A stretch of DNA of 64,000 nucleotides, taken from the sequence record OR896832.1; one strand, 5' to 3'. Source of the DNA: Escherichia phage GoldenSnicker. The notes under the pieces are model-generated. The model saw only the letters and a list, made by a program, of their open reading frames with translations. It was not told the origin of the DNA and did no database searches. Position 1 is the first letter of the stretch, and each line of letters begins with the position of its first letter. Below are positions 10 through 43,055 of the stretch, piece after piece. The translations under genes were made by a program, and so were the position numbers.

Positions 10-291
10 TTATTCGTGATTAGTTTCGATGTTGTACATTTTGCACCAGTTCAGCCAATCGCCCAGATCTTGATAGTTGATGCTTTTATCTGCTGCCATC
101 GTTTTTGTCTTGATACCCATATGTGCGTTATGAGTAAGCATTTTTACAGTGAACTCGATTTTATCGCCTTTAGCTTTAACATCAACCAGTTTTGTCCACT
201 GGCTACCAGCACCGCGAATGTTCATACCAACGATGTTTCCGATGTATGCTTCTTTGTTTTTCAGGATTTCGGTTGCTTTGATGAATTTCAT
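10..291 (-). CDS. hypothetical small early protein
   Basis: 93-aa ORF on minus strand in early-gene block; no recognisable motif. Confidence 0.4.
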   Translation of the reverse strand: MKFIKATEILKNKEAYIGNIVGMNIRGAGSQWTKLVDVKAKGDKIEFTVKMLTHNAHMGIKTKTMAADKSINYQDLGDWLNWCKMYNIETNHE

Positions 292-361
292 TTTTGATTC
301 TCCAGTTCGTTTCGGTATGGGTGTATTATGCTATGTTCTTACTTTGGTGTCAACAACTTTT

Positions 362-631
362 TTAGATATTTTCAGAAATAAATTTTAAAACTTGACGTAA
401 ATGTTTCTCATCTTTGATAGTCGCCGGAAGTTCTTCTTTTACTTCCTGTGCAAGATAGATATTTCCGTTCCAAGTGAAAGATCCGTCTTCGTTTACGCGA
501 TAGCTGAACATCCACTCGCAATCATTTTCGATTTCATATACACACAGAAGGGTGTAATCGTTAAAGCTATTGATTTCAAGGTCGAAGCCGTGACGTTTTG
601 CAAAGTTGGTAGTGGTTTTAGTCAGCACCAT
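362..631 (-). CDS. hypothetical small early protein
   Basis: 89-aa ORF; AGGAGA SD and early promoter cassette (672-700) immediately upstream. Confidence 0.5.
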   Translation of the reverse strand: MVLTKTTTNFAKRHGFDLEINSFNDYTLLCVYEIENDCEWMFSYRVNEDGSFTWNGNIYLAQEVKEELPATIKDEKHLRQVLKFISENI

Positions 632-2281: not shown

Positions 2282-2591
2282 TTATAAGGTCAAACCAATT
2301 GTTTTTCGCATAATGCTTAATGCGTGCTTGATCTGCTTCCGATGGTGATAGATTCCATGCAACCACTACAACTTCTGACGCATCGTCATCCGTTTCTGAT
2401 ACCCAATGATTGTGATTCATACAGTTATTTGCTATCGAGTGAGCAAATGATTTCATCACTGGAGACGTATAATCGTAGTAACGGATTTTCAGATTTTCAT
2501 CAACGTACAAATAGATCGTATAAGGTTTATATTCAGTAACCAGTAACAGACAGTTACGCAATTCTGGGAAAATCTTTTTAGTTAATTTCAT
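2271..2591 (-). CDS. hypothetical protein, HxHW/AxDV paralog family (start trimmed to internal Met)
   Basis: YLYVDENL and NHNHW motifs; listed ORF extends to 2672 but overlaps the next gene, so an internal start is preferred. Confidence 0.45.
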   Translation of the reverse strand: MKLTKKIFPELRNCLLLVTEYKPYTIYLYVDENLKIRYYDYTSPVMKSFAHSIANNCMNHNHWVSETDDDASEVVVVAWNLSPSEADQARIKHYAKNNWFDLISED

Positions 2592-2592
2592 T

Positions 2593-2832
2593 TTATAATC
2601 CTCGGTCTCGGCTATAGTACACGGTACGCCATACAATTTCATGTTTCGTGTCGCTCCAGCACACGATCTCATTTACTCTTAAATCTTTGTTATCAACAAA
2701 AGATGAACATTGTGACGCTTCTTTCATCATTTTATCTGCTGTTTTCTCATCAAATACAGCACAGATTTCTTTATACACTCGATAATCTTTGAATTGACTC
2801 TGGATACCCATAATTAACACCATTCCAACCAA
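2593..2832 (-). CDS. hypothetical protein, second small paralog pair
   Basis: 79 aa; SQFKDYRVYKEI...KMMKEASQC resembles neighbour 2771-3028 (SKFKDYKAYQQI...KMMEDASKC). Confidence 0.45.
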   Translation of the reverse strand: MVGMVLIMGIQSQFKDYRVYKEICAVFDEKTADKMMKEASQCSSFVDNKDLRVNEIVCWSDTKHEIVWRTVYYSRDRGL

Positions 2833-3028
2833 TTGTTTTTGAGAAAACGTTTATCCACTGTTGAGTGTAGCATGTTTCTTTCCATGATACAATACGAGTA
2901 GAATAATGGTTTTTGTTTCCAGAAAAGGACGGACATTTTGATGCATCTTCCATCATCTTTTCGGCGAACTCTGGTGCGTATACTCGCAGGATCTGTTGAT
3001 ATGCTTTATAATCTTTAAATTTGCTCAT
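2771..3028 (-). CDS. hypothetical protein, second small paralog pair
   Basis: 85 aa; paralog of 2593-2832. Confidence 0.45.
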   Translation of the reverse strand: MSKFKDYKAYQQILRVYAPEFAEKMMEDASKCPSFSGNKNHYSTRIVSWKETCYTQQWINVFSKTIGWNGVNYGYPESIQRLSSV

Positions 3029-3293
3029 AATTGTTAACTACCTTATCAGCTTCTTTTATTGTTTTTACATCAACTGCGATAATCCGTAAAGGTTCGTCGA
3101 AGGTCCACCAATGATCGTGATTATCAGCTTGTGATTTATCACCAAAGGAATCACGAATATCATTTTTACATTTATAGCTAATGTGACCGTCATAGTCAAT
3201 ATAAAGGTAATTATCGAAAATCGGCGTTTTTAAGATCATACCGAAAAATCTTTCTTTGTGTGTCTTATCCAGCGTTGCAGTAATTCGCATCAT
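3015..3293 (-). CDS. hypothetical protein, HxHW/AxDV paralog family
   Basis: 92 aa; YLYIDYDG, DNHDHWW, IIAVDV motifs. Confidence 0.55.
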   Translation of the reverse strand: MMRITATLDKTHKERFFGMILKTPIFDNYLYIDYDGHISYKCKNDIRDSFGDKSQADNHDHWWTFDEPLRIIAVDVKTIKEADKVVNNYEQI

Positions 3294-3517
3294 AATATAT
3301 TCCTCTTAGAAAGGGATGGTCATTTCTTGAGCTTGTACATTTTCGTTAGGATTAAACTTCATCCAACCGATATTGTCTACCAGTATATGCACATTTTTAT
3401 CATATCCTACGTGGGTAGTCAATACTGTATGTGCTTTACCTTCAATGATGAGTTCCATGTACTTCTGAACTTCGATAGCTTTCATTTTGATTCTCCGTTT
3501 GTTGTCTTGATGGGAGT

Positions 3518-3546
3518 ATCTTACTACTCCCTTTAATCATTGTCAA
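3518..3546 (-). promoter_or_regulatory. sigma70-type early promoter with inverted repeat
   Basis: TTGACA (3546..3541), 17 bp, TAAGAT; inverted repeat gggagta/tactccc spans the -10. Confidence 0.45.
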
Positions 3547-9340: not shown

Positions 9341-10218
9341 TAAAAGTCTCCGTAGTTAACCTGAAAACATTCTACACCAATTGAGCGGTACATGTCAACC
9401 ACTTGATCACGGTCATCTACTGCCAAAACAACATGATAACGCGGTGCAATTTCAGAGAAGAAAATCTCTTTCTTTACTTCATGATCGGGACGACGATCAT
9501 TAGTTTCACGTTGAAAGTGATCACTAGGTTCAATACCCTGTTCACGCAGCCATTGCAGAGTATCTTCTTCGCAAACATCCTCACGCCCTGAGCATGTAAT
9601 GATACGATAGCCATTATCACGATACAGTTTAAGCATTTCGATCACTTGCGGACGAGGTTTATCTTCTTTGACCTTTGTCCAGTCAAACGGATGACGACCG
9701 CCCTTATCCGCTAATGTCCCATCAATATCAAAGATCACTGCCTTTGGCAGCATGGTATTCGGTTTGTATACTTCTTGACCCATATATTCCTGCATCAGAT
9801 AAAATTGGTTGCGCAAATGAGAAAGTGGAATTGCTTTCTCGCCGCGATAGAAATTACGTTTCTTTAGTGTCTCAAATGATTCATTGAACACTTGTTCAGT
9901 ATACACCGCGTTAAATTCTTTTGCAAGTTCTTTGTAGAATACACGATGTTTTTCTTTCAGGTTGGTATCAGAGATAATGATACTCAATCCGCGTGATAGA
10001 GTCTCACGAGCAATCATTCTCTGAATAGACTCTACCAGCTTTTCTTTTTCCTTAGTATACTTGTATTTCAAATGCGAGTCAACACCAAACAACATAAGAC
10101 GAAGATCATCACGATTCACATTACGATAATTGCTAAACCGTTTACATGTTTCCATCGCCCATGTAGTTTTACCAGACCCAGAACAACCAACGGTTAAAAT
10201 CACTTCACATTTCGGCAT
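9340..10218 (-). CDS. pseT: polynucleotide 5'-kinase/3'-phosphatase
   Basis: P-loop GCSGSGKTTWA, HAD motif FDIDGTLA, C-terminal VECFQV...GDF as in T4 PseT; start at ATG overlapping the o-spanin stop (TAATG). Confidence 0.85.
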   Translation of the reverse strand: MPKCEVILTVGCSGSGKTTWAMETCKRFSNYRNVNRDDLRLMLFGVDSHLKYKYTKEKEKLVESIQRMIARETLSRGLSIIISDTNLKEKHRVFYKELAKEFNAVYTEQVFNESFETLKKRNFYRGEKAIPLSHLRNQFYLMQEYMGQEVYKPNTMLPKAVIFDIDGTLADKGGRHPFDWTKVKEDKPRPQVIEMLKLYRDNGYRIITCSGREDVCEEDTLQWLREQGIEPSDHFQRETNDRRPDHEVKKEIFFSEIAPRYHVVLAVDDRDQVVDMYRSIGVECFQVNYGDF

Positions 10219-13051: not shown

Positions 13052-13084
13052 CTTGATACTCCTTAGTTGTTTTGGTATGGGAGT

Positions 13085-13114
13085 ATCTTACTACTCCCGT
13101 GATATGCTGTCAAC
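13085..13114 (-). promoter_or_regulatory. early promoter cassette
   Basis: TTGACA (13114..13109) and TAAGAT with gggagta/tactccc inverted repeat. Confidence 0.45.
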
Positions 13115-13310
13115 TGCTTTTTTATGCAACCGCAAACATCAACATTTGAACATTCTTGGCTGTCTGGCTTTCAAAGTTCTGACATTCTTTGATAATGTCC
13201 TCTACTTTCTCGCCGGAGATCTCCGCGTAAGTTTCGATTGCCATTTTCAGTACCGCGTCAAAGTTGTTCATTTGATTCTCCTTAAAGTGTATTTCGTTTC
13301 GATGGGGGTA

Positions 13311-13339
13311 TATTACTACCCCCGTTTCATGCTGTCAAC
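13311..13339 (-). promoter_or_regulatory. early promoter cassette
   Basis: TTGACA (13339..13334), 17 bp, TAATAT; inverted repeat gggggta/tacccc(c). Confidence 0.5.
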
Positions 13340-13557: not shown

Positions 13558-13624
13558 TTTGATTCTCCTTTGTTTTCTTGATGGGAGTATCTTACTACCC
13601 CCGTTATTCAGTGTCAACTACTTT

Positions 13625-33047: not shown

Positions 33048-35951
33048 ATGGCAGATTTAAGCAGAATCCAATTTAAACGTACTAGCACTAAAGGCCGTCG
33101 ACCTGATGCTGGTACGATGAATCCGGGGGAATTGGCAATCAACCTTGCGGATCAATATCTTCTTACTAAAAATGATTCCGGTGCTATTATCAATTTAAGT
33201 TGTCCTCCGGTTTATGACAGCGATGTTACAATGGCGGGTAAGGTTAAAGGAAATAATTATATTTTAAGTAAAACCGCTAATTATTTTGAAGACCAAACCG
33301 CGCGAGATCTTAATTATTTTGGTGCGTTTCGACCGAATAATGCTGATGGTTGGTCTAACTTGATTCTGAACATTCCTCATCCCAGCGGTAAAGCACACGG
33401 TCGCGGGTTTGAATTTGAATATGGTTCTAGTTCCTCTCAGGTTAAAACCTATGGCTTTGATAAGGATGGTAACAAGAGATTCAGCTTTCGCATGTATCAC
33501 GAAGGTGATAAACCTACTCCCTCAGAATTGAACGTCTATAGCAAACAAGAAATTGACCGTATGTTTGTTAAGAACGTTAAAATGTCCACTCCTTCCGGTG
33601 AAGCAACCCGTGGTTATTTTAAAATTGCATCCGCAATGATCCCGCAGAGTGGTCGGATGGCGTTTCTGCGAATCTATGGTGGGAACGGATTTAATGTTAA
33701 CTCCTACGATCAGGTGGATTTCCTTGAAATTGTGATTCGTAGTGGTAATAATAACCCTAAAGGCGTTAGTATTGCTGCATATCGTCGAAATTCTTTGAAC
33801 GTCCATGAAGTATTTGCAATTAATACTTCCGGTGATAACTATGACATTTATGTTAACTATGGTCGCTTCACCGATAACGTTATTGTAGAGTTTGGAAAAA
33901 CTGTTGATGTTGCATTGACTGTTCACGATGTTCCTGAATTTTCGGCGACTAAACCAGAAACCGGAACTAAATTTGATGCTCGTGTTATTACCATGTTCAA
34001 CACCGAAAACAAAGCAGGAACGTTGATGTTTGATAATAACTCACAAGCAACCTATGATATTGTGAGCCTTAGCAATGCACCTGATAATAGCCGAAATTAT
34101 CTGCGTAAATTCCGTAGCAAAGCGAATGAAACAATATGGCATGAAACTGTTCAAGGTGATGTGTATCGTTTGGCTACTGGTTCCACCGACCAAAAAGAAG
34201 TATTAAAAATTGTTGGTAGTGATGGTTTATTTGTCAATAGACTTCATCTGCAAGGCAATAACGCGATTCGTATGTGGCGTCCTACTGGTTGTAGTAACTA
34301 TTTTGAATATATGGATCAGCGAGACGGGGCTAATAAACGTCAAGGGTGGTTTGGTTTTGGTTCTACAGAAACCAACGATTTTCAATGGTATAGTGACGAA
34401 GGTAAAAACTTTGTTAAGCTAGAAGCAAGTGGTCAAGTATCTTTAAGCGCAGGTGCAACCAAAATTGTATACACTAATGGTCAATATGTAGCTGCCAATT
34501 CTGATGCATACCGTATGATCTTTGGTAATTATGGTGCATTCTGGCGTAATGACGGCACTAAAGTTTATCTTATGTCTACTGCCGAAAATGATAGATTTGG
34601 TGGCTGGAATGCCTATCGTCCATTCATTTATGATTTAACTTCCGGTAACGTTCAATTAGGCGGTGATGGTAACGAAGATGCATTAACGTTAGAAAGTGCT
34701 TCTCGTGCCGCTCGCTTTAGTAATGACGTTTACATTAAGAAAGGGCTTTTGACTTTCGACGCTGGACGATTAGGATCTCGTGATTTCTTTAAAATCAACC
34801 ATTGGGGTGATAGCAATAACGCCCGTGATAACATTTTGCAGTTTGAAGACAGTCAGGGCGCACATTTTACCACTGAACGTGCTATGGGTACTGGTAACAT
34901 AACAGCACGTTTTAAAGGCTTTGTTCGTGTAGAATCTGGCGAAATTGCATTTGATGCTAATCGGGGGTCGCAGTCTCAATTTACCTTACACACATGGGGT
35001 AACGAGCAACGCAAACAGGTTTTTGAATGTAAGGATGCTACAAGTTATCACTGGTATACTGAACGTACTCAGGGTGGCACTGGACCTATTCTGTTCTGTA
35101 TGGCTGGTAGTCTAAACGTTGGTAGCAATATCACAACAACTGGTGCTGATATTACGTTTAAACGCGCTGGCAATAAGCACATCTGGTTTAGAGATCCAGA
35201 CGGTTTAGAGTTGGGCTTGATGTATTGCGATGACGCTGGTGTTATTCGCTTCCGTGGTCAGAAACAAGCCCAGGCGTGGAAATTTGCAGATAAAATGATC
35301 CAGTTGGAATCTGGTACTGTATCTGGTGGCGGTAATGGCCTGATTCGTGGTGAAGTTGCTGGCGGTAGTTGGGCTAGCTGGCGTGACCGTGCTGCTGGCC
35401 TTATGGTTGGGTGTCCTCAATCAACCGATTCCGCTCATAACATCTGGAAAGCTACTCATTGGGGTAAATATCACATCGCAGCAATGGGTGTACACGTTCC
35501 TAGCGGTACTATCGGTAATGCTATAGCTCGCCTAAACGTTCATGACGCCAACTTTGAATTTAGCGCCTCCGGTGACATGTCGGCAGGGCGTAACGGTTCG
35601 TTTAACGATGTTTATATTCGTTCTGATACTCGCCTTAAAATCAATAAGGAAGAGTATAAGGAGAATGCCACCGATAAAGTTAATCGCTTGACGGTATACA
35701 CCTATGACAAGGTTAAATCTTTAACCGACCGTACTGTCATTGCTCATGAAGTTGGTATTATTGCTCAGGATCTTGAAAAAGAATTGCCGGAAGCCGTAAC
35801 AACTTCTAAGATCGGCGATCCTGATAAGCCAGAAGAGATCTTAACAATTTCTAACTCTGCTGTCAACGCTCTTTTAATTAAGGCGTTTCAGGAAATGAGC
35901 GAAGAACTTAAAGCCGTTAAAGCTGAACTAGCGGAACTTAAAAAGAATTAA
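33048..35951 (+). CDS. 37: long tail fibre distal subunit with C-terminal intramolecular chaperone domain
   Basis: N-terminus MADLSRIQFKRTSTKGRRPDAG...GELAINL matches T4 gp37; C-terminal ~110 aa begin with SDTRLK and end in a coiled-coil-like tail. Confidence 0.85.
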   Translation: MADLSRIQFKRTSTKGRRPDAGTMNPGELAINLADQYLLTKNDSGAIINLSCPPVYDSDVTMAGKVKGNNYILSKTANYFEDQTARDLNYFGAFRPNNADGWSNLILNIPHPSGKAHGRGFEFEYGSSSSQVKTYGFDKDGNKRFSFRMYHEGDKPTPSELNVYSKQEIDRMFVKNVKMSTPSGEATRGYFKIASAMIPQSGRMAFLRIYGGNGFNVNSYDQVDFLEIVIRSGNNNPKGVSIAAYRRNSLNVHEVFAINTSGDNYDIYVNYGRFTDNVIVEFGKTVDVALTVHDVPEFSATKPETGTKFDARVITMFNTENKAGTLMFDNNSQATYDIVSLSNAPDNSRNYLRKFRSKANETIWHETVQGDVYRLATGSTDQKEVLKIVGSDGLFVNRLHLQGNNAIRMWRPTGCSNYFEYMDQRDGANKRQGWFGFGSTETNDFQWYSDEGKNFVKLEASGQVSLSAGATKIVYTNGQYVAANSDAYRMIFGNYGAFWRNDGTKVYLMSTAENDRFGGWNAYRPFIYDLTSGNVQLGGDGNEDALTLESASRAARFSNDVYIKKGLLTFDAGRLGSRDFFKINHWGDSNNARDNILQFEDSQGAHFTTERAMGTGNITARFKGFVRVESGEIAFDANRGSQSQFTLHTWGNEQRKQVFECKDATSYHWYTERTQGGTGPILFCMAGSLNVGSNITTTGADITFKRAGNKHIWFRDPDGLELGLMYCDDAGVIRFRGQKQAQAWKFADKMIQLESGTVSGGGNGLIRGEVAGGSWASWRDRAAGLMVGCPQSTDSAHNIWKATHWGKYHIAAMGVHVPSGTIGNAIARLNVHDANFEFSASGDMSAGRNGSFNDVYIRSDTRLKINKEEYKENATDKVNRLTVYTYDKVKSLTDRTVIAHEVGIIAQDLEKELPEAVTTSKIGDPDKPEEILTISNSAVNALLIKAFQEMSEELKAVKAELAELKKN

Positions 35952-35992: not shown

Positions 35993-36232
35993 ATGGTCTA
36001 TAATATCGTCATTGGTGCTTTGTCTAATTTCGGAATGAAATTATTGTCAAAGTTAATTAGTGAAAAGATGCTCACTAAAATTTTCTTCTATTGCGCTCGT
36101 CGTCTTGCGGCTTATACCAATACGCCAATTGATGATCGTTTTGTGGAAGAACTTTATAAGGAGTTTAATAAAGATCAGTCAGAAGATAGTAACGAGCAAG
36201 ATAAACCTAGTGATAGTCAACTACCTAAATAA
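35993..36232 (+). CDS. hypothetical small protein
   Basis: 79 aa, amphipathic N-terminus and acidic tail; occupies the slot where T4 has gene 38. Confidence 0.4.
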   Translation: MVYNIVIGALSNFGMKLLSKLISEKMLTKIFFYCARRLAAYTNTPIDDRFVEELYKEFNKDQSEDSNEQDKPSDSQLPK

Positions 36233-36265: not shown

Positions 36266-36922
36266 ATGCAAGTTTCTGAAAAAGGGAAAGACTTTGCTAT
36301 CTCAAATGTCCTGCGCGCTATTTTCACAACTAAAAGCACGGAGTTGCTCGTACTTCGTGTTTTTGCTGCCGTCGTGTTGTCCATATTGGCATTTGTCGTT
36401 TATAGTAAAAACGAGTTATTTGCGCTTTATAAAGAGACTCGTTATGAGACTTATGCTCACATTCTCCAGGTAGAGAAAGACCGCAATTTTGATAATGCAG
36501 CACAGGAGCAGTTACAGATAGTTCATGTGTCGGCTGATGCCGATTTTTCTGCTGTTTTTAGTTTTCGTCCGAAAAACCTAAACTATTTTGTTGATTTGGT
36601 GGCATATGAAGGAAAGCTACCACACACAATCGATGAAAAAAATTTAGGCGGATTCCCTATCAATAAAACGAGTGAAGAATATCGTAGGCATCTTTTAGGT
36701 AAATCATATTTTACCGATAAAGATTTCCAGTATATTCCATCAAGAGAAAAGAAATTAGAGAATATCGATATAGGTTTCATGTATTCTTGTCCTATATTCA
36801 ATCTCGATAATGTCTATTCTGGTAGTATCGCCATTTCATGGAAGAATAAACCGGATATTGACATTGAGAATTTAGATACTCTTTGCAATCAATCTGCCAG
36901 AATCCTCGGAAGGATTAGATAA
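36266..36922 (+). CDS. t: holin
   Basis: 218 aa, same length as T4 T; LQIVHVSADADFSAVFSFRPKNLNYFVDLVAYEGKLP and MYSCPIFNLDNVYSG match. Confidence 0.85.
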   Translation: MQVSEKGKDFAISNVLRAIFTTKSTELLVLRVFAAVVLSILAFVVYSKNELFALYKETRYETYAHILQVEKDRNFDNAAQEQLQIVHVSADADFSAVFSFRPKNLNYFVDLVAYEGKLPHTIDEKNLGGFPINKTSEEYRRHLLGKSYFTDKDFQYIPSREKKLENIDIGFMYSCPIFNLDNVYSGSIAISWKNKPDIDIENLDTLCNQSARILGRIR

Positions 36923-36956: not shown

Positions 36957-37205
36957 TTATTGGCGCATAGACGCGCCTGAATCGCATTTTGACGCTGTAT
37001 GATGAAAACAGGTAGCGTACCAGTCATTGGCTTGTTTGTCTTCGTCAGAAAACGCGTAATTGCGTTGTATGCCGTTTTCTACTTTGACCAGTGCAATAGC
37101 TGTTTCTGGAAGATCAATCAATCGGACAAAATCACCATCTTCCCACTCTACACGAGCAATATCATAGCCCATCTCAAAGTATACAATCGCTTGTTCTAAT
37201 TTCAT
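36957..37205 (-). CDS. hypothetical protein
   Basis: 82-aa ORF. Confidence 0.4.
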   Translation of the reverse strand: MKLEQAIVYFEMGYDIARVEWEDGDFVRLIDLPETAIALVKVENGIQRNYAFSDEDKQANDWYATCFHHTASKCDSGASMRQ

Positions 37206-37531
37206 TCTGGAAACTTCCCGTAAACATTCTCTGCCAGCTTACGTGCATCTTTTACAATATCTTTCATGTAATGACTATAATTTTTAGCTAGATCAATGAT
37301 GCAGTCAACAAAGAAGTAATAGCGTCGCAGTGCTACCAGCTCAACATCTTCAAGATGACCATTTTCTCCAATCGCTGAAATATGTTTAAATTCCTTTTGG
37401 ATCGCGTCCATCGCTACATTAACTTCTTTTATAATATCTTTCGTATTATATGCACCTCGACTAATCAAAATTTTGGTTAGGTCTTCTGCTTTTTCGTGAA
37501 AGTTGTCAATTTCAAACTCGATCATAATCAC
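37202..37531 (-). CDS. hypothetical protein, paralog pair A
   Basis: 109 aa; C-terminus ...ARKLAENVYGKFPE resembles the neighbour's ...ARIMTENIFGKF. Confidence 0.45.
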   Translation of the reverse strand: MIMIEFEIDNFHEKAEDLTKILISRGAYNTKDIIKEVNVAMDAIQKEFKHISAIGENGHLEDVELVALRRYYFFVDCIIDLAKNYSHYMKDIVKDARKLAENVYGKFPE

Positions 37532-37639: not shown

Positions 37640-37972
37640 TCAAAATTTACCGAAAATATTCTCTGTCATAATTCTTGCTTCGTCGATTATTTTCGTCATG
37701 TTCATGGTGTAGTTATGATCATTTAGTGCCTTAATGACAACGAGCAAGGAATCTAAAAACACTCGATACCGGGTATATTCTACGCTATTTGTGAATACCG
37801 ATGTTTTCTCTACTTTATCGATCAGATAGCCTAAAACCGATAGCGCCTCGTTTACTTCCCTTGTTACTTTATCTGCGCTAAACAACACCGGATAAAGACG
37901 CGGTGTGATTAACCGCGCTGCCTCTTTCAATTCTGTCGCTTTCCATGATTCATATTTGTCATAGTTAAACAT
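37640..37972 (-). CDS. hypothetical protein, paralog pair A
   Basis: 110 aa; paralog of 37202-37531. Confidence 0.45.
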   Translation of the reverse strand: MFNYDKYESWKATELKEAARLITPRLYPVLFSADKVTREVNEALSVLGYLIDKVEKTSVFTNSVEYTRYRVFLDSLLVVIKALNDHNYTMNMTKIIDEARIMTENIFGKF

Positions 37973-38919: not shown

Positions 38920-39207
38920 TTATTTTCGGTTGTGGTCGCGATATGTTTTAAAATATCCCTCGTACCACGGTAAAATATCTGGATTTTTACCACTATACAG
39001 ACCTTTAACCATCATGTCAATAAGGCCATCTGGTGTTTGATAGTTTCCAGCTTTTATAAGCTCTCTGATTAAAATCTCTCTGTATATGTCTTTCGGATCT
39101 TCGTAATCAACTTGTATTGTGGTTGTGGTCTCATTCAATTTGGTTTCTGGAGTATCTCGCATTGCATCCCACCAATCTTTTGTGACCTTCATGTTATTGA
39201 ATTGCAT
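38920..39207 (-). CDS. hypothetical protein
   Basis: 95-aa ORF. Confidence 0.4.
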   Translation of the reverse strand: MQFNNMKVTKDWWDAMRDTPETKLNETTTTIQVDYEDPKDIYREILIRELIKAGNYQTPDGLIDMMVKGLYSGKNPDILPWYEGYFKTYRDHNRK

Positions 39208-39218
39208 AATTTAACCTC

Positions 39219-39977
39219 TTACTTGCAAACGTATTGATCTACATCAATTGCGCCACCGAATGTAGGGTGACGTTTTTCAAATCGAATAGTTCCGTCGTTT
39301 GGTTCGAAAACGGAGTATTCATATAGATCTTTCTTGCCAACATTCTTATAAAACCCGCCTTTAGTCATAACGGTTTCTTGTACGTTTGCTTTGTGTACGT
39401 TGTATTCATCAATGTATACAAAATCAACCATCTTCCCATTTTTAATGGTTACTTTAAGATCCCCTGGCTTGTTTCCATATTTTGCATACAGTGGAGCTTC
39501 TTTAATTTTGGTGGAAATTCCATCTTTCATACTCCACTCATAACGAACGGTGCATTGATAGGTAAAAGTTTCGACCTTCTGTTCTTCCACCATTTTTTCT
39601 TCCTGTTTCGGTTGTTCTTCGTCAACCTTCACAGAAGTCTCTGAATCGCTTTCTGACGCGGTTTCTTCTTTAGGTAATACATTCATCAAGTTTTGGATTT
39701 GAGCGTTGTATACAGCCTCCAGTGGCTGAATCTGCCCGATATTGATCATTGTATCACGAACAGTTTTATTCCAGTTGCGTTGCTCTTGTTTCAGAGACGG
39801 ATCAATCTTAACAGCCTTAACATATACTTCATGAAGTTTAGAATCCAGTGCGGAGATTGACTCATTAGCACAAATAAACTTCTCTGATTTTGTAGTGGCT
39901 TTAGCGCAATCAAAGGACGCAGCATTAGCACCGAAAGCAGTAGCGGAAAGAACGATAGCAGCGATAATGTTTTTCAT
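39219..39977 (-). CDS. secreted protein with DUF1311/LprI-like N-domain and Cys-bracketed C-domain (possible lysozyme inhibitor)
   Basis: signal peptide MKNIIAAIVLSATAFGANA; DCAKATTKSEKFIC...LD..LHEVY...QRNWNKTVRD pattern; acidic linker; C-domain with TKG motif and terminal Cys. Confidence 0.5.
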   Translation of the reverse strand: MKNIIAAIVLSATAFGANAASFDCAKATTKSEKFICANESISALDSKLHEVYVKAVKIDPSLKQEQRNWNKTVRDTMINIGQIQPLEAVYNAQIQNLMNVLPKEETASESDSETSVKVDEEQPKQEEKMVEEQKVETFTYQCTVRYEWSMKDGISTKIKEAPLYAKYGNKPGDLKVTIKNGKMVDFVYIDEYNVHKANVQETVMTKGGFYKNVGKKDLYEYSVFEPNDGTIRFEKRHPTFGGAIDVDQYVCK

Positions 39978-40049
39978 AATATATTCCTCAGTGTTTTTTG
40001 TCTTGATGGGAGTATCTTACTACTCCCTTAATCCGGTGTCAACTACTTT

Positions 40050-40488: not shown

Positions 40489-40549
40489 GTGATTCTCCTT
40501 TCGTTTGGTATGGGAGTATGTTACTACTCCCTTATCTTTACGTCAACAA

Positions 40550-41495: not shown

Positions 41496-41697
41496 ACTTT
41501 CCCTCCAAAAATTCTTTCATCAAATAGTCTATCGTTGCTCTGTGTTCTGGTGTGTTTGTTATCTCTGCTAACTTGTTCAGAGATTCAATAGTGATCCGGT
41601 TGGCTTCTTCCATAGTCTCAAAGACCATCGGTACAATCTTTTTATTGTTGTACACGAAAGCCACATAACCGCCTTCTGGATATTCTTTCATAATCAA
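41488..41697 (-). CDS. hypothetical small protein
   Basis: 69-aa ORF between gene 52 and downstream genes. Confidence 0.4.
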   Translation of the reverse strand: MIMKEYPEGGYVAFVYNNKKIVPMVFETMEEANRITIESLNKLAEITNTPEHRATIDYLMKEFLEGKYD

Positions 41698-43055
41698 CCC
41701 TTCTTAAGTTCTTTAAGATCTTTCTTATATTCCTTCATTGCGGTCGTCTTTGTCCAATACTCATATTCACTATGATGTTTATCGGCATCTTTGACCAGTC
41801 GATCATACTCTTCTTGAGTAACGCTATACAATGGCATAGAAACTAGCTTATCGGCGTATGGACGCAGTTTTTCATGTCCATTGATGGATTGCATTACCTC
41901 GGCCTTTTTCTTTCCCTGTAGCTCGATTTCTCCCTTAATTACGCGATCGATAAATTCGGCTTTAGCCATTGCATAATTGTATGCTTCCAGCGTTTCCGCT
42001 TGCATCAATTCAATGCGTTTATCGACATACCCTAAGCGAATTTCGACGAATCGACGGATCAGATCGCTCGCTTTCTCGAATACTTCAACTAAACCACGTT
42101 CATTAACCACTACGATATTCTGGGCTACTAACTGCGTTAGTTTAAAATCCTTCATGATTTGCTCATGTCGAGCGGATTCATCTTCACTTTTGAAATAATC
42201 GCGTTTCAGTGTTACTTCAAATCTGAATCCATCCTTAGAGCAACGGTCATTATATGAGACAATCAGATCTTTTTCTTCCAGTGCATCCAGTACCGCTACA
42301 TATTCTTCACGGTCGAACTTATAAGGAACTTCTGATATTGTCAGTTTAGTCTTGCCGTTTAGTTCATATGTACCCTCAAGAATCACACCATCGCGATCAT
42401 CTCGCGGGATAACTTTACCCGTGAATTTCGGGAATTGAACACTAGGTTCTTTATCCAGTTTTCCGGCAAGTGCTAGCTCTGTGCATTCAATAAGGCTTTC
42501 CAGTGAATGCGGTAAAATGTCAGTTTTATACCCTGTAGCAATACCACTAATACCATTAGCCAATACCATTGGCACAACTGGCAAGTAGAACGCTGGCGGG
42601 ATGTGTTCCAGATCTTCGTGCTTGGGTGCGCAATTCATATCTTTATAGATTTTAAAGAAGTTTTCATGCACGCGAGCAAAGATATAACGTGCCGCACCTG
42701 CTTTCTGGACTAAACGCGATCCGAAGTTACCTTGACCGTCAAGCAGTGGAGTATTATTGCTCCATGTATTCGCCATGAGTGATCCGGCTTCTACGGCATT
42801 AGTTTCCCCGTGGTGATAACCCAACTCAGCAACACCAGATCCAATATCTGCCATCTTACGGAATTTCTTACGGTCGCCTTTACTCTTTTGTAAAGCACAT
42901 TCCATAACAAAGCGTTGCACTGGTTTAAGCCCATCCACTAATTGAGGAATCCCGCGTTCCTCGGCAGAATAGATCGCATATTCCTTAGCTTCATTATGTA
43001 CAATGCTTTCAAGGCTGCGGTAAGTAACTGATTTATTCATCTTCACCTCATACAC
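41694..43055 (-). CDS. 52: DNA topoisomerase II medium subunit (GyrA-like)
   Basis: 453 aa; GLKPVQRFVM, active-site region ARYIFAR; size and position as T4 gp52. Confidence 0.85.
   Translation of the reverse strand: MYEVKMNKSVTYRSLESIVHNEAKEYAIYSAEERGIPQLVDGLKPVQRFVMECALQKSKGDRKKFRKMADIGSGVAELGYHHGETNAVEAGSLMANTWSNNTPLLDGQGNFGSRLVQKAGAARYIFARVHENFFKIYKDMNCAPKHEDLEHIPPAFYLPVVPMVLANGISGIATGYKTDILPHSLESLIECTELALAGKLDKEPSVQFPKFTGKVIPRDDRDGVILEGTYELNGKTKLTISEVPYKFDREEYVAVLDALEEKDLIVSYNDRCSKDGFRFEVTLKRDYFKSEDESARHEQIMKDFKLTQLVAQNIVVVNERGLVEVFEKASDLIRRFVEIRLGYVDKRIELMQAETLEAYNYAMAKAEFIDRVIKGEIELQGKKKAEVMQSINGHEKLRPYADKLVSMPLYSVTQEEYDRLVKDADKHHSEYEYWTKTTAMKEYKKDLKELKKG

Follow-up and report, generated by a model that had tools for sequence, protein, structure and literature searches.

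A gene for a predicted secreted, LprI-like protein in Escherichia phage GoldenSnicker (OR896832.1) raises the question of whether its product inhibits a lysozyme, as its family label implies, or recognizes some other partner in the periplasm. Many of the early genes of T4-like phages are ORFans to which no role has been assigned and, to our knowledge, only a few phage proteins of the periplasm are understood, Spackle, Imm and RI among them. The gene is already known as 'hypothetical' in phages, and its N-terminal domain is annotated in E. coli as 'lysozyme inhibitor LprI family protein'. A search of the literature on phage DUF1311/LprI proteins returned nothing relevant, and we found no description of the orphan barrel, of its cassette polymorphism or of the sharing between Krischviruses and prophages that are reported here.

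Within the 64,000-nucleotide stretch of DNA that was analyzed (the window), the gene is a 252-aa minus-strand ORF with an ATG start (39219..39977), as a sequence-only reading had described it. It is a real gene and not a chance ORF: it is intact in all matching Krischvirus genomes (56/56) and its N-terminal module is under purifying selection. The 7 kb around it are 97-98% identical to those of the RB49-like coliphages of the genus Krischvirus (for example vB_Eco_SAP, TB34 and RB49), and the gene lies amid small minus-strand ORFs between the holin gene t (36266..36922), which is 2.3 kb away, and the topoisomerase gene 52 (41694..43055). The earlier claim that T4 has no counterpart is consistent with the tblastn result, in which 114 phage records match and those from Escherichia, Shigella and 'Enterobacteria' phages are essentially Krischviruses. 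The protein is placed in phrog_14799 and also matches phrog_4675 and phrog_33858, while its neighbors on the phage side are small ORFans (phrog_15915 and phrog_19699). The flanks contain no hydrolase or effector gene, whether in the phage or in the prophage, and a PADLOC search for defense systems gave no meaningful match for the protein.

The gene is preceded by a TTGACA-17-TAAGAT promoter (40042..40014, minus strand) whose -10 hexamer, TAAGAT, lies within a hairpin. The composite motif, TTGACA-N9-GGGAGTAGTAAGATACTCCC, occurs six times in the window where no copy is expected by chance (Table 1). Such promoter-early stem-loop (PeSL) cassettes have been described in the hyperplastic regions of RB49 and phi1 (Arbiol et al., 2010; PMC2839356). 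The copy upstream of the LprI-like gene agrees with the RB49/phi1 elements, and the gene is thus a PeSL-preceded ORFan in a hyperplastic region, that is, an individually promoted early accessory gene.

Other small ORFs near the holin gene were also noted. An 82-aa ORF next to t (36957..37205, minus strand) matches PF11195 (Tad2-like, Thoeris anti-defense 2) with 27.6 bits against a cut-off of 25, and its product is a candidate anti-Thoeris sponge encoded in the same hyperplastic region as the LprI-like gene. The ORFs at 37202..37531 (109 aa) and 37640..37972 (110 aa), both on the minus strand, end alike (..ENVYGKF and ..ENIFGKF) and have the appearance of tandem paralogues; neither has a Pfam match. 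Homologues of a 79-aa ORF between gp37 and t (35993..36232, plus strand) are labelled PF26925 (Phage_PM2_Gpl) on related contigs, whereas a Pfam scan of the ORF itself found nothing at E <= 0.01.

Table 1. Sequence features of the LprI-like gene and of the PeSL-type elements in the window
Feature	Position	Strand	Basis
Early promoter/stem-loop (PeSL), TTGACA-N9-GGGAGTA-GTAAGA-TACTCCC	40008..40042	-	Sigma-70 scan, 10/12
PeSL-type motif copies	3512..3546, 13079..13113, 13304..13338, 13583..13617, 40008..40042, 40512..40546	all -	Motif count
Shine-Dalgarno sequence GAGGA, 7 nt 5' of ATG	39985..39989	-	Direct sequence reading
Signal peptide, residues 1-19; predicted signal peptidase I cleavage between ANA and AS	39921..39977	-	Sequence reading
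DUF1311/LprI helical module, residues 20-100, constant in all copies	39678..39920	-	C24-x11-C36 pair
Acidic E/K/S-rich linker, residues 101-136; holds the upstream recombination junction	39570..39677	-	Predicted disordered
Allelic C-terminal beta-barrel, RB49-type, residues 137-252, bracketed by C142 and C251	39222..39569	-	AlphaFold2 model
Replaced cassette	39212..39575	-	DNA comparison with Phi1 and UPWr_E1

The N-terminal part of the protein largely bears out the sequence-only reading. Its n-, h- and c-regions (MKNIIAAIVLSATAFGANA, with ASFDC after the predicted cleavage site) read by rule of thumb as a signal peptide, with a basic n-region, about 14 hydrophobic residues and an A-x-A motif at -3/-1, and the protein is predicted to be a Sec-exported soluble protein. 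A lipoprotein was also considered and discarded, as no lipobox precedes C24. Both the AASFDC junction and the N-terminal cysteine pair are invariant in distant phage homologues; the pair had been noticed before, but its spacing is C24-x11-C36 rather than C-x10-C. Likewise, the motifs first written as LD..L..Y and Q..W...RD are present with a small correction, to LDxxLxxxY (L44-D-x2-L-x3-Y52) and QRxWxxxxRD (Q66-R-x-W69-x4-R74-D75). The proposed DUF1311 identity of the domain passes a profile search: residues 24-76 match positions 1-71 of the 106 positions of Pfam PF07007 (LprI, formerly DUF1311) with 24.7 bits against a gathering cut-off of 22, and an E. coli prophage copy (23.6 bits) and a Klebsiella phage homologue (25.0 bits) also pass. 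AlphaFold2 predicts, with modest confidence, four helices across residues 30-100, a small helical-bundle fold like that of the solved DUF1311 structure 3GI7, and a profile of five diverse N-modules from phages matches 6AR7 by sequence (E 0.008). We accept that the N-terminal domain belongs to DUF1311. The module is followed by the acidic linker that had been claimed, in which 11 of the 36 residues are E and five are K, pLDDT is below 50 at residues 104-132, and the alleles differ by indels. The four cysteines of the protein, one pair in each domain, likely form two disulfides.

The two ends of the gene have very different histories. Across all copies, the DNA of the N-module and linker is 90-100% identical and the N-module is nearly invariant in protein; its dN/dS of 0.13 and dS of about 0.16 indicate that the copies share a recent ancestor and have evolved under purifying selection. 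The barrels of different alleles share 16-39% of their amino acids, the only invariant residues being the two Cys, one Gly and one Asp, and their DNA identity is about that of unrelated sequences, near saturation. The 56 Krischvirus alleles are of three types: 44 are RB49-type, as in the window, 11 are Phi1-type, whose barrel is 37% identical to the RB49-type, and one is UPWr_E1-type. Among the 44 phages with the RB49-type, 42 have barrels that are 98-99% identical. Compared with Phi1 and UPWr_E1, the flanks of the cassette are 94-97% identical, while no similarity is detectable between 39575 and 39212; in UPWr_E1, similarity is back 8 nt 3' of the stop codon. At the upstream end, codon-aligned sliding windows place the collapse of identity at nt 330-410 of the gene, within the linker, so that the junctions of the barrel swap lie within the gene and just 3' of it, not at the PeSLs. 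The polymorphism of the barrel is consequently a cassette replacement of ancient alleles and not the product of local hypermutation. As read from these junctions, the barrel is exchanged, among virulent Krischviruses and between them and the prophages of temperate E. coli phages, by recombination at two places: within the linker and shortly after the stop codon.

The temperate side of this exchange is seen in 26 of 5426 complete E. coli genomes, which carry a chromosomal copy of the gene; over their first 371-408 nt these copies match the phage gene with 94.6-96.5% DNA identity, and beyond that point they show no similarity to it. At the two loci that were inspected, the LprI-like gene lies at a prophage end, with hicAB and the gene for a terminase small subunit as its neighbors. 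A promoter-like site and a strong terminator of its own make the prophage copy a classic moron. In the prophage of E. coli H2 (L003), a 25-codon remnant (MKFNSMKITKDWWDAMKANHQNDIN*, 9773..9850) of the ORF that lies downstream of the gene in Krischviruses (38920..39207 in the window) is found directly 3' of the LprI-like gene, with a strong terminator after it (9951..9975). This remnant suggests that the gene passed from a T4-like phage to the prophage. The N-module in the window is also closer in dS to a prophage copy (0.057) than to some Krischvirus copies (0.18-0.24). Two allele families, D and E, are found both in virulent-type contigs with synteny from gene 52 to the holin gene and in prophages. 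Within family D, DNA identity falls from 80-85% in the first half of the barrel to 50-66% in the remainder, which indicates that mosaicism goes on inside the barrel.

Proteins of 232-251 aa with a like design are also encoded by T4-like phages of Klebsiella and Aeromonas, the Aeromonas jumbo phage D3 and the lambdoid coliphage ev099. Each of these homologues has the AASFDC junction, DUF1311 and a hydrophilic linker, followed by a different C-domain that is again bracketed by two cysteines, and the combination of a constant carrier with a variable tail is therefore a recurrent design in phages. One of these phages, the T4-like Klebsiella phage Clarke_MM3 (L006), has a homologue of Spackle (144..425; phrog_1586, E 9.7e-26) about 2 kb from its LprI-type gene (2501..3256), whose C-domain is Cys-bracketed and not a barrel. 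As Spackle and an LprI-type protein coexist in this phage, the two are not simple substitutes for each other. In the Krischvirus RB49, none of the six ORFs around dmd matches phrog_1586; a tblastn search with the Klebsiella Spackle gave 742 matches.

What the barrel is can be approached from its fold. Modelled alone by AlphaFold2 with an alignment of 10 alleles, the Cys-bracketed C-domain that had been described forms an up-and-down beta-barrel with eight or nine strands (nine by DSSP), the first of which holds C142 and the last C251 (pLDDT 86, pTM 0.78). Its sequence relatives are confined to its own family. A profile of the 10 alleles, searched against 1.84 billion representatives, found only that family plus repeat-protein noise; Pfam has no family for any of the 10 alleles, NCBIfam gave only noise, and phmmer found no match among PDB sequences at E <= 10. 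Searched against the PDB with Foldseek, the barrel has no match at E <= 0.001, and the fold matches of the lipocalin, FABP, YceI and Cap15 kinds that were considered are weak (TM 0.4-0.59, Foldseek E > 0.005).

The sequence-only reading had linked this domain to the MliC/PliC lysozyme inhibitors through a TKG motif. If the protein were a true inhibitor of MliC/PliC type, a loop of the barrel would enter the active site of a lysozyme and block the gp5 of a superinfecting phage, as Spackle does, or another muramidase. In M. tuberculosis LprI, PF07007 is likewise combined with an MliC barrel, and it is reportedly the MliC domain, rather than DUF1311, that suffices for lysozyme resistance (PMC7933661); E. 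coli MliC is a small beta-barrel with comparable placement of its two bracketing cysteines (PMC2267010); and T4 Spackle, a periplasmic phage inhibitor of the gp5 tail lysozyme that excludes superinfection and has its own novel fold, is a precedent for a periplasmic inhibitor of gp5 (PMC7650644). Neither the full protein nor any barrel allele, the one in the window and nine others, matches PF09864 (MliC) at E <= 10, and the 50 best Foldseek matches include no MliC/PliC structure; the general two-domain architecture is shared with LprI. In MliC/PliC proteins, the loops that contact lysozyme carry the motifs SxSGAxY and YxxxTKG. A motif like SxSGAxY is absent from the barrel alleles, and the TKG at residues 204-206 is found in the RB49-type allele alone; at this place other alleles have HQNG, DENG, QYKN, ENQN or FHGA, and no conserved position could form a loop that inserts into an active site. 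In addition, LprI and MliC are lipoproteins, and the phage protein has no lipobox. The gp5 tail lysozyme, moreover, is 95.7-100% identical in all 59 of the matching Krischvirus-group records (59/59), whatever the barrel allele, and a Spackle-like arms race with the phages' own gp5 therefore fails to explain the polymorphism of the barrel. We thus regard a true MliC/PliC-type inhibitor as distinctly unlikely. The model of the barrel is compatible with the MliC/PliC/ACP fold class, a non-specific likeness without sequence support for homology, and what stands of the earlier reading is a secreted two-domain DUF1311 protein without the MliC/PliC identity of its barrel. The label 'lysozyme inhibitor LprI family protein' should accordingly be used with caution, as it rests on the domain of LprI other than the one with demonstrated inhibitory activity.

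The genome of the phage itself points to no target, as the barrel allele covaries among Krischviruses neither with gp5 nor with the receptor-binding gp37, which is mosaic independently of it. For instance, the gp37 proteins of the Phi1-type phages PHB13 and MIZ2/3/6 are as near to that of the window as are those of the RB49-type phages SAP and TB34, whereas in many phages of the RB49 type gp37 is unrelated. The distal tail fiber gene 37 of the window (33048..35951, plus strand) has a megablast coverage that ranges from 9% to 100% in Krischviruses that are otherwise 97-98% identical. A constant module joined to deeply diverged, mobile alleles is the pattern expected if balancing or diversifying pressure acts on a recognition module, and we infer that the barrel is a specificity module that binds a variable, periplasm-exposed partner outside the conserved genome of the phage. 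Based on this pattern, we tentatively propose, as a quite possible though not a firm reading, that the protein gives allele-specific protection of the cell envelope against superinfecting phages or cell-wall toxins. The DUF1311 module would serve a common function, such as oligomerization, anchoring or contact with peptidoglycan hydrolases, and the barrel would bind the variable partner, so that the envelope of the infected or lysogenic cell may be shielded from incoming cell-wall attackers. Candidate attackers are the tail-tip enzymes of superinfecting phages and the muramidases of T6SS or bacteriocins, and the outcome would be exclusion or immunity whose specificity is set by the allele. Several points speak against envelope protection: T6SS immunity would lead one to expect specificity in DUF1311, which is invariant here; the gene has no effector or hydrolase gene beside it; the allele follows neither gp5 nor gp37; Spackle and an LprI-type protein occur together in a Klebsiella phage; and the barrel fold is generic and may bind a small ligand.

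The same reading can be extended to a polymorphic periplasmic specificity system that is common to virulent and temperate enterobacterial phages, in which DUF1311 would be the carrier, the C-domains would be interchangeable and traded by recombination, and each allele would neutralize a different invader under frequency-dependent selection. The C-domains would comprise the barrels of Krischviruses and E. coli prophages and the other Cys-bracketed domains of Klebsiella, Aeromonas and lambdoid phages. As invaders, one could think of rival phages, through their tail-tip or ejection proteins, and of cell-wall toxins of bacteriocins or T6SS. In this full form, the proposal is rather unlikely.

A regulator of a host peptidoglycan hydrolase is a further alternative. 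Salmonella ScwA, a periplasmic, disulfide-bonded DUF1311 protein without a role in lysozyme resistance, controls the lytic transglycosylase MltD by raising its level, and its overproduction lyses cells (PMC7933661). A phage protein of this kind could stabilize or remodel the wall or set the timing of lysis, which would suit an early promoter and the short distance to t. The hydrolases of E. coli are conserved, however, which leaves discrete and deeply diverged alleles unexplained, and the holin and the genes that flank the LprI-like gene are 97% identical across the alleles. We give little credence to this explanation.

Equally little credence is given to exclusion by receptor masking, of which T5 Llp and phi80 Cor are known factors. 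Here the target of the barrel would be a receptor of the outer membrane or a transport component that serves other phages, bound at its periplasmic face. A periplasmic protein that is both a prophage moron and an early gene product of a virulent phage would fit such a role, and allelic diversity would suit different receptors; the protein is not a lipoprotein, however, and its allele has no link to the gp37 type of its own phage. Least probable of all is a binder of small molecules or lipids, of the lipocalin, FABP, YceI or Cap15 kind, that sequesters or senses a periplasmic compound, since conserved pocket residues would be expected whereas only Cys, Gly and Asp are invariant, and the fold matches to such proteins are weak.

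If envelope protection holds and the alleles set the specificity of exclusion or immunity, they would bear on how mixed infections end and on the composition of therapeutic cocktails with Krischviruses, among which Phi1, GEC-3S, UPWr_E1 and others are candidates for therapy. The barrel would then also offer a compact scaffold for studies of periplasmic protein recognition.

Comparison with known systems places the protein in a domain family that is tied to the inhibition of cell-wall hydrolases. Mycobacterial LprI (Rv1541c, PF07007 + PF09864) is the closest in layout: it is exported and has the same domain order, with DUF1311 helices followed by a small beta-barrel. LprI is lipid-anchored and encoded in a bacterial core genome, whereas the phage protein is soluble by its sequence, is encoded by phages, and has a long acidic linker and an allelic, cassette-swapped barrel without the MliC signature. 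The MliC/PliC proteins (COG3895, PF09864; Brucella PhiA) and Neisseria ACP resemble the predicted barrel of the phage protein in being small and in having cysteines able to staple it. They have eight strands, whereas the phage barrel has nine by DSSP. Profile searches detect no relationship, sequence identity amounts to 6-17%, the phage alleles do not share the motif that contacts lysozyme, and the likeness is no stronger than that to functionally unrelated barrels. T4 Spackle (gp61.3) is an early protein that reaches the periplasm and loses its signal peptide by cleavage, as is predicted for the LprI-like protein, but the two (phrog_1586 and phrog_14799) have no sequence relationship. ScwA is, like the phage protein, a soluble DUF1311 protein, and its disulfides matter for its function; it is an all-helical protein of 275 aa with DUF1311 at its C-terminus and has neither a barrel nor an allelic cassette, and four cysteines have been described in its group, whereas the phage DUF1311 module holds one cysteine pair only. 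DUF1311/LprI proteins with signal peptides have also been proposed or reported to give immunity to cell-wall-degrading T6SS effectors (PMC12981562, PMC8867033, PMC9796082, PMC12135965). These immunity proteins, which include EHEC Etsi4, Salmonella Dublin SED_RS06230 and the products of Pantoea orphan immunity genes, are single-domain proteins of about 150 aa that are encoded beside their own effector, whereas the phage gene has no adjacent effector and its product joins an invariant DUF1311 part to an extra, variable barrel. Like the phage protein, they are periplasmic and encoded in mobile or variable DNA. The theme that appears to run through the family is antagonism or regulation of peptidoglycan-cleaving enzymes and, by analogy with the T6SS immunity proteins, it is plausible that the phage LprI-like protein is also an antagonist of peptidoglycan-degrading enzymes.
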